Positions 33,683-35,156 of a stretch of DNA of 64,000 nt are shown here, piece by piece. Every line of letters starts with the position of its first letter. Position 1 is the first letter of the stretch. The translations under genes were made by a program, and so were the position numbers. Source of the DNA: Actinomycetota bacterium (GTDB taxonomy: Bacteria > Actinomycetota > Acidimicrobiia > Acidimicrobiales > Microtrichaceae); NCBI GenBank assembly GCA_016703525.1, contig JADJBW010000003.1, positions 19,849-83,848 on the forward strand. The letters run 5' to 3'. The notes under the pieces are model-generated. The model saw nothing but the letters and a program-made list of their open reading frames with translations, did no database searches and was not told the DNA's origin.

Positions 33683-34520
33683 GGGGGGGGGGGGGGGGCG
33701 GCGGGGGGGGGCGGGGGGGGGGGGGGGCGGGGGGCCGCGGGGGGGGGGGGGGGGGGGGGGGGGGGGGGGGGGGGGGGGGGGGGGGGCGGCGGGGCGCGCC
33801 CGGGGGGCGGGGGCGCGGGCGCCGCGCCGCCGGGGGGCGGGGGGGGGGCGGGGGGCCGCGCCCGCCGGGGGCGGCGGCGGGGGGCCCCGTGCCGCCGCCG
33901 GACGGCCGGGCGCCGGCGGGGGGGCGCCCGCGGGCCGCCCGCGCGGGGGGCGGCGGACCGGGCTGGGCGCGGGGCGGGCGGGCGGGGCGGGGGGGGGGGG
34001 GGCGGGGGGGCCGGGGGGGGGCGGTGGGGGGGGAGATGGGCCGGGGCGGGGGCGGGCGCGCCGCGCCGGGGGGGCGCGGGCGGCGCGGGGGGCTGCGCGG
34101 GGCGACGAGGGCGGAGCGGGGAAACGCGACGTTGAGCGTGGCGGGCATTCAGCGGGGATCGCCTTTTATACGGGGTTGTTGGGTTTTCCCGCCCCAGGGC
34201 CAGGGGGAAAAGAAAAGGACAACGCCGAGACCGAAATTGCCCGCGGCAGGGGGGGGGTCGGGGCGGGGGTGGGGGGCGGGGGGACGGGGCGGCCGGGAGC
34301 GGCGGGACGGGCGCCGGCGGGGGGCCGGGGCGCACCGCGCCGCTTGGGGGCAGGGGCTAACGCCCCGGGGGGACGGGGGGGCAACGCGCGCTTGCGGCCG
34401 GGCAGCGCCGGGGGGCGGGGCCCGCGGGGGGGCGCGCGACGCGCCGGGGGCGGCCGGGCGCGGGGCGGGGCCCGCGGGGGGGGGGGCCTTGCGGGCTTGG
34501 ATCGCCAGGCGCGGTGGCGT
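33683..34520. other. anomalous strand-asymmetric G-rich low-complexity block (homopolymer G runs up to ~70 nt)
   Basis: ~840 bp almost entirely G with scattered C; no coding potential; the convergent MBL-hydrolase gene loses its stop codon at this boundary. Confidence 0.9.
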
Positions 34521-34559
34521 CGCCCGCACGATGGTTACCAGCCGCGGGCGACCCATTGT

Positions 34560-35156
34560 CGAGGCCGGGCCGCTCGGCGGCGATGGTCGTGTCGGTGCCG
34601 TGCCCTGGCATCACGATGGTGTCGGCATCGAGGGACGCGAACAGCCGTCGCTCGATCGACTCGATGATCGTCGCGAAGTCGCCCCCGGGGAACTTCGTGG
34701 CACCGGGCCCTCCGGGGAACAGGGTGTCGCCGCTGAACAGCAGCGGCTTGCCTTCGACCCGGAAGCACATGGACCCCGGCGTGTGCCCCGGCGTGTGGAT
34801 CGTGCGGAGGCGGAGGCGACCCACCTCGATCACGGTGTCGTGCTCGATCACCTCGTCGTAGGCGGGCAGGTCCGCCGCGTCTTCGGCCGTTACGCCCACC
34901 GAGTAGCCGGCGTCGCGCATCTCGGGGATCGCCTGGATGTGGTCCCAGTGACCGTGCGCGTCCCGAGCACGCGGCGCACGCCGAGTCGGCTCGCGAGCGC
35001 GAGGAGCTTGTCGTGCTCGTTCGCCGCGTCGATCAGCACGGCCTCGCCGGTGGCCCGGCAGCGCAGCACGAACACGTTGTTGTCGACGGGCCCGACGACG
35101 AGGCGGTGGATCTCCAGGTCGGTGTCGGCATGGTGCAGCGTGTCCATGCCGGTCAT
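34560..35156 (-). CDS. MBL-fold hydrolase (hydroxyacylglutathione hydrolase-like), frameshift at ~34940 and 3' end running into G-rich block
   Basis: expected THxHxDH motif is split by the frameshift near 34940 (translates as …LGTRTVTGTTS… in the ORF track); downstream motifs read …TPGHTPGSMCF…GDTLFPGGPG…MPGHG…; 5' 70 aa in a different frame; no stop before 34520. Confidence 0.65.

Follow-up and report, generated by a model that had tools for sequence, protein, structure and literature searches.

What is the block of almost pure G that lies between msrB and the convergent gene for an MBL-fold hydrolase in a contig of an uncultured Microthrixaceae member (Acidimicrobiales), and does it belong to the genome of this organism? 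The DNA that was analysed, here referred to as the window, is a stretch of 64,000 nucleotides, and its first-pass annotation considered the block to be an assembly artefact, e.g. no-signal G calls or chimeric reads, with an unusual G-quadruplex-rich insertion as the fallback. The features that frame the question are given below in positions of the window; those inside the block are named according to the alignment to L001, one of the sister assemblies introduced further on.

33149-33574, plus strand: msrB (SelR domain), intact, 141 aa, Pfam SelR E 2.7e-49
33639-33682: palindromic hairpin, with arms at 33639-33658 and 33663-33682 and a 4-nt TATG loop
33683-34095: apparently G-overwritten body of a 141-aa ORF, whose ortholog is at approximately L001 10508-10925; includes G runs of 16, 15, 48 and 14 nt
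34096-34245: less corrupted island, corresponding to the 5' end of the small ORF, its upstream region and a degraded hairpin
34246-34500: over-long, G-rich copy of a spacer, approximately 170-200 nt longer than the spacer with a 2x31-nt repeat in the relatives
34535-35147, minus strand: MBL-fold hydrolase gene, complete with its native stop codon TAA (34535-34537) and split into three frames

Base counts, skew and a run of 48 G agree with the original description of a near-pure-G, strand-asymmetric block. Specifically, positions 33683-34500 hold 526 G, 207 C, 48 A and 37 T (64% G and 25% C), and in 200-nt windows the GC fraction peaks at 0.995 and the GC skew at +0.55. The G runs inside the block are 16, 15, 48, 14 and 11 nt long, and the short island quoted in the annotation, ccttttatacggggttgttgggttttcccgcccc, is located at 34164-34197. 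With a background G frequency of 0.36, simple arithmetic gives a probability of approximately 1e-16 for a run of 48 G by chance in 64 kb. The end of the block had been placed at 34560; the G-rich zone stops at approximately 34500 (its last long G run is 34476-34486), which gives a length of approximately 820 nt. That the block lacks coding capacity was confirmed in so far as its ORFs had no match to any protein family in a Pfam scan, and an Rfam scan of the block region matched no family. Moreover, the two ORFs across the block were not on record when looked up as exact proteins in public collections, and a 39-mer specific for the island had no match among the GTDB genomes or the JGI metagenomes.

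The asymmetry extends beyond the block. All 13 homopolymers of at least 8 nt in the window are G on the plus strand and none is C, regardless of the orientation of the genes. Among related loci comprising 779 kb there are only four homopolymers of this length (two G and two C, maximum 11 nt), and at 80 related Acidimicrobiales loci no G or C run exceeds 7 nt downstream of the MBL gene, where the single-base fraction never exceeds 0.48 per 200 nt. These 80 GTDB relatives were found via the MBL protein; msrB is not located beside the MBL gene in them, and they serve as a control for composition only. Natural G-tracts, including phase-variable poly-G tracts, are roughly 8-15 nt long.

An exact-protein look-up using msrB of the window yielded 22 public contigs with a 100% identical protein, of which ten were fetched (L001-L010). 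These represent independent ENA assemblies, two NCBI MAGs and one Logan assembly, all from the same Microthrixaceae population. In ten out of ten the msrB-to-MBL interval is 739 nt, constant in length and free of any G block; anchored between common flanking words it spans 769 nt with 0-8 SNPs and zero length variation. The layout is also the same in all ten, i.e. msrB, 115 nt, a minus-strand ORF of 141 aa, a hairpin, a repeat and the MBL stop codon, and the expectation that msrB and the MBL gene are naturally separated by less than 200 bp did not hold, the 739 nt including a gene. The 141-aa ORF has no Pfam family and is called as 111 aa by some gene callers on identical DNA; it starts with MHRRRIFRSAIVSLAAGFLSVAC, and by inspection its N-terminus would be signal-peptide-like with a lipobox-like cysteine. 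The hairpin of the interval has a perfect 22-bp stem (the L001 copy folds at -45 kcal/mol), the 2x31-nt tandem repeat is located at L001 11073-11154, and the relatives encode an intact 203-aa MBL-fold hydrolase with Pfam Lactamase_B, for which the best GTDB representative is 82% identical.

Two of the sister assemblies, L006 (9621-9700) and L003 (10428-10503), carry eight clustered SNPs each within the first 200 nt past msrB. Both are SPAdes assemblies at low coverage (about 6x), and in L006 nearly all of the changes are from A/T to G/C, and five C-terminal residues of the small ORF differ as a result. The stretch may hence be prone to errors on other platforms as well, or it may be hypervariable.

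Alignment of the window to L001 shows 98.4% identity over the 10.5 kb to the left of the block (window 23134-33635; L001 1-10501) and 93.7% to its right (window 34524-36283; L001 11155-12953), and identity falls to about 60% at the block alone. Outside this bad zone roughly 1% of the positions are mismatched and neither direction of change predominates, which is what strain variation would produce. When aligned globally with G tolerated in the window, the block and the L001 interval scored 108.8 (z 5.3; 300 random genomic segments used as controls gave 62.7 +/- 8.7 with a maximum of 82.3), and the gene-body part of the block alone reached z 4.8 versus random segments. An inverted interval was ruled out since the reverse complement scores 63.0, which is at the level of the controls. 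Using blastn with relaxed scoring, window 33851-34250 matches L001 10680-11083 with 62% identity over 418 columns (E 3e-19); the next best matches, to G-rich low-complexity DNA, are at 7e-9 and hence ten orders of magnitude weaker. A local example is CCCGTGCCGCCGCCGGAC in the window versus CCCGTACTTCCACCGAAC in L001, and remnants of the spacer copy are likewise still recognisable (GCACCGCGCCGC versus GCACCACGCCGC).

The differences are strongly G-ward. In the G-tolerant alignment 59 A of the relatives are G in the block while 26 are retained, 61 T are G while 22 are retained, and 66 C are G while 127 are retained, so that G has taken the place of approximately two in three A and T and one in three C across the block; a G in the relatives is almost always retained (209 positions). 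The inserted bases comprise 140 G and 72 C. An alignment generated with mafft has 176 substitutions to G versus 23 from G, together with about 270 inserted and 40 deleted bases. The counts of A/T to G/C errors directly beside the block were too small to reveal a gradient. The degraded orthologous hairpin, at approximately 34196-34243, no longer pairs (fold of 34185-34250, z +1.0, no better than shuffles), and 34246-34500 shows a period of roughly 50 nt. Taken together, these alignments show the block as a collinear and apparently G-overwritten copy of the small gene, the hairpin and the repeat, into which G and C have been inserted. An insertion, chimeric or other, between two adjacent genes is at odds with this, the block overwriting the 141-aa ORF, the second hairpin and the repeat.

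The MBL gene was said to lose its native C-terminus and stop codon exactly at the edge of the block. Both are present, however: QWVARGW followed by TAA is encoded at 34535-34558 on the minus strand, and the last long G run stops some 48 nt before this native end. Compared with the intact relatives the gene has lost 1 nt at 34557 and gained 2 nt at 34956-34957, which breaks the frame, and tblastn recovers the protein in several frames of the window. As judged from this comparison, the loss of the MBL frame stems from indels, with the native WVARGW-TAA shifted out of frame by the 1-nt deletion.

The palindrome reported directly before the block was verified, having arms that are complementary at 19 of 20 positions, and the block starts at the next base, 33683. 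It folds at -35.5 kcal/mol (z -6.1; none of 200 shuffles was as good). A 30-mer covering most of both arms and the TATG loop has exact matches in four other contigs (L096-L099), where it is located at an unrelated intergenic spot between convergent genes; the hairpin is therefore a natural and genuine dispersed intergenic element, and this strain probably does carry it. L001 has a sister copy at 11029-11072, in which the loop differs. At the site that corresponds to 33639-33682, the L001-type assemblies have by inspection only the last hairpin bases and a similar right flank, GCGGCGGGAGC, and the palindrome of the window is an extra copy relative to these assemblies. That a single hairpin had been moved by misassembly was ruled out, given the degraded second copy at the orthologous place and the occurrence of the window type elsewhere.

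We note that these palindromes form a family in Microthrixaceae contigs. Members are perfect palindromes of approximately 44 nt (AATyCAGGCTCAGCGGTGCA, a 4-nt loop and the reverse complement) and include window 33639-33682, L001 11029-11072, L097 1314-1356 and L098 4177-4219. At least two unrelated loci have them, in each case between convergent genes; their loops are TATG or CATT, and compensatory changes in the arms preserve pairing. The family resembles a dispersed hairpin element of the REP-like or terminator type.

The window has three smaller patches of the same kind.

5527-5560: second G patch (run of 16 G), which replaces the left arm and the loop of an intergenic hairpin and one repeat copy
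36250-36340: third corrupted patch, rich in G and located in a KAP NTPase gene, with several deletions that are 19-32 nt long
37113-37195: fourth G patch (runs of 12 and 26 G), which replaces a mixed-sequence linker with a short inverted repeat in the KAP NTPase gene

In sister assemblies all three replaced stretches are normal, cleanly read sequence, and two of them include an inverted repeat. The stretch at 5527-5560 is clean in L091-L093, and relative to these the window has deletions of 10, 12 and 10 nt there. By these alignments, the G-biased corruption of native sequence is shown to recur at hairpin or low-complexity GC-rich sites, always on one contig strand.

Moreover, reading frames are broken in sufS (at 28331), sufC (at 29410) and the MBL, KAP NTPase, WD40 and PIN genes, and a DUF2231 gene has a 1-nt insertion at 6878. 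The frameshifted pieces of sufS, sufC and the MBL gene are 95-100% identical to intact relatives, most others 72-93%. The Suf products are essential for Fe-S cluster assembly and, because of this role, the frameshifts in sufS and sufC would not be real in a living cell. Judged against the intact relatives, the indels in sufS, sufC, DUF2231 and MBL are most likely consensus errors. Between 34524 and 37843 there are 31 deletion versus 7 insertion events, and nine of the 13 single-nucleotide events are in homopolymers; this prevalence of deletions and of homopolymer sites among the indels is suggestive of a long-read consensus whose polishing was incomplete.

Some of the differences to the right of the block are probably of another kind. 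Window 35675-40350 (L001 12305-16986) is a variable island that carries genes for a KAP-family P-loop NTPase (818 aa in the relatives), a WD40-like repeat protein and a PIN/PhdYeFM toxin-antitoxin pair, and it looks like a defence or NTPase-WD40 signalling module. The WD40-like protein is built from tandem repeats, each of about 120 nt; its length is 492 or 534 aa depending on the assembly, and it is much shorter in L007 (calls of 198 and 102 aa). In this KAP NTPase, WD40 and PIN-PhdYeFM island the divergence is probably in part natural, because gene sizes there differ among the clean assemblies too. Likewise, an in-frame 18-nt insertion relative to L001 at 27236-27253 (GCCCAGTCGGACGCGTCG), at the junction between the 3' end of an acyltransferase gene and the convergent NifU gene, and a 3-nt deletion in NifU at 27420 relative to L001, are probably natural strain variation.

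How does the block compare with artefacts that have been described? In Illumina two-colour chemistry (NextSeq/NovaSeq) a dark cluster is called G (fastp, PMC6129281; also PMC8002175). The block resembles such poly-G in that T and C (here also A) are replaced by G, in its homopolymers, and in the way the G and C contents of a single strand diverge. In contrast, two-colour poly-G tails are confined to 3' read ends, do not exceed 300 nt and have no indels, whereas the block is 820 nt long, internal and indel-rich. For the no-signal G calls that had been suggested, the G-ward direction of the miscalls hence stood, resembling by analogy the dark-channel G calls of two-colour chemistry, and the classic poly-G tail did not.

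A second described type is the sequence-specific error (SSE) of Illumina, in which consecutive strand-specific miscalls follow inverted repeats or GGC motifs; these are biased from A/T to G/C, are worst in high-GC genomes, and the affected region was taken to be the roughly 40 bases that follow the trigger (Nakamura et al. 2011, PMC3141275). Like these, the block starts right after an inverted repeat and is confined to one strand, and the patch at 5527 likewise overwrites a hairpin. SSEs are, however, limited to tens of bases and corrected by reads from the other strand, while the corruption in the block extends over 820 nt and has entered the consensus.

The third comparison is with an unpolished long-read (nanopore-type) consensus, in which, as in the window, deletion-dominated homopolymer indels split conserved genes and error-rich patches alternate with stretches identical to relatives. 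The window does have such frameshifting deletions, mostly in homopolymers, in genes that are intact in relatives. Errors in a long-read consensus create false pseudogenes, and they normally shorten homopolymers rather than create them. We found no description of a run of 48 G and wholesale substitution by G as the signature of such a consensus, our literature search for a long-read poly-G artefact having returned nothing specific. Finally, natural G-tract or G-quadruplex elements share with the block that the G runs are on one strand, but they are conserved in position and do not overwrite genes, and G or C runs in the related loci (779 kb) reach at most 11 nt.

On this comparative evidence we conclude, with a probability of roughly 93%, that the block is an artefact of sequence production (sequencing or assembly) and not a biological feature. 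The artefact reading of the first-pass annotation is thus supported, namely by the ten clean assemblies, by the collinear G-overwritten copy, and by the like corruption and the indels elsewhere in the window. Base calling or consensus would have failed over one stretch of an ordinary locus, with the output drifting to G on the plus strand. The failure may have been triggered at strong hairpins and GC-rich low-complexity sequence, and at the patches the consensus of the contig may rest on a few poor reads from one strand. The true locus would then consist of, in order, msrB, the hairpin, the minus-strand 141-aa ORF, the second hairpin, the tandem repeat and the MBL stop. Some points count against this reading. 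Our searches turned up no assembly of exactly this strain (in exact look-ups neither the Band_7 nor the acyl-CoA dehydrogenase protein of the window is on record), which leaves a small probability for a strain-private sequence. The block fits no single textbook artefact, since it is far longer than a short read, contig-internal and insertion-rich, and contains a run of 48 G. Moreover, part of the divergence to its right is probably natural, as described above.

Among the other explanations the one that survives best, though we consider it improbable, is that a real and divergent, moderately G-rich allele, e.g. one with an expanded repeat and the extra hairpin, is overlaid by sequencing errors, such that the block would be an artefact only in part. 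The strain-specific hairpin at 33639-33682 is a natural feature, L003 and L006 have their clustered SNPs just downstream of msrB, and the excess length and the period of approximately 50 nt at 34246-34500 could mean a real expansion of the repeat. The G-ward spectrum, the run of 48 G and a GC fraction of 0.995 are nevertheless unlike natural divergence at a genomic distance of 1-2%, and a like signature is present at unrelated sites in the window.

It is less probable still, and very unlikely in absolute terms, that the tract is a genuine G-quadruplex-rich or hypermutated element that arose in vivo when a mutagenic or template-independent process with a preference for G acted on one of the strands. 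The strand asymmetry and the dense G tracts would fit such an origin, as would the start of the block exactly at the foot of a strong hairpin. In its most specific form, which we regard as equally far-fetched, G-biased synthesis, either template-independent or error-prone and starting at the hairpin, would have rewritten approximately 800 nt of one strand into a dense G-quadruplex field between convergent genes, private to this strain. The tract is, however, missing at the orthologous position in the ten assemblies from the same population and in the 80 related genomes. The fallback of an unusual G-quadruplex-rich insertion is very unlikely. A tract of this kind would also destroy a conserved ORF and a conserved hairpin. 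Furthermore, all G runs are on the plus strand of the contig whatever the gene orientation, the block is accompanied by the frameshifts in sufS and sufC, and a tract of 48 G would be highly unstable in replication. No bacterial process is known to us by which A, T and C become G, and further G is inserted, along 800 nt of a single strand.

The least credible alternative is a genuine protein of extreme proline content encoded on the minus strand (ORF 33648-34148, 166 aa; ORF 34149-34556): minus-strand ORFs do exist, one of them with an ATG start, but all six frames are nearly free of stops (0-2 per 272 codons) owing to the lack of A and T, 80% of the proline codons are CCC versus 31% in the real genes of the window, the proteins have no Pfam match and are not on record as exact proteins, the DNA aligns collinearly to an ORF of the relatives that is not proline-rich, and no proline-rich homologues with normal codon usage were seen at the locus in related genomes.

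With the artefact as the preferred reading, the locus itself is ordinary, and the case matters as quality control. The 64-kb window has at least four G-overwritten patches, and at least seven of its genes, sufS and sufC among them, are frameshifted; gene calls from the window are therefore unreliable. The false calls at risk include pseudogenes, "proline-rich" or "glycine-rich" ORFs, a "truncated" MBL hydrolase and a missing 141-aa ORF. Long homopolymers of one base on a single contig strand, together with collinear residual similarity to clean sister assemblies, provide a diagnostic for such regions that does not depend on the reads.
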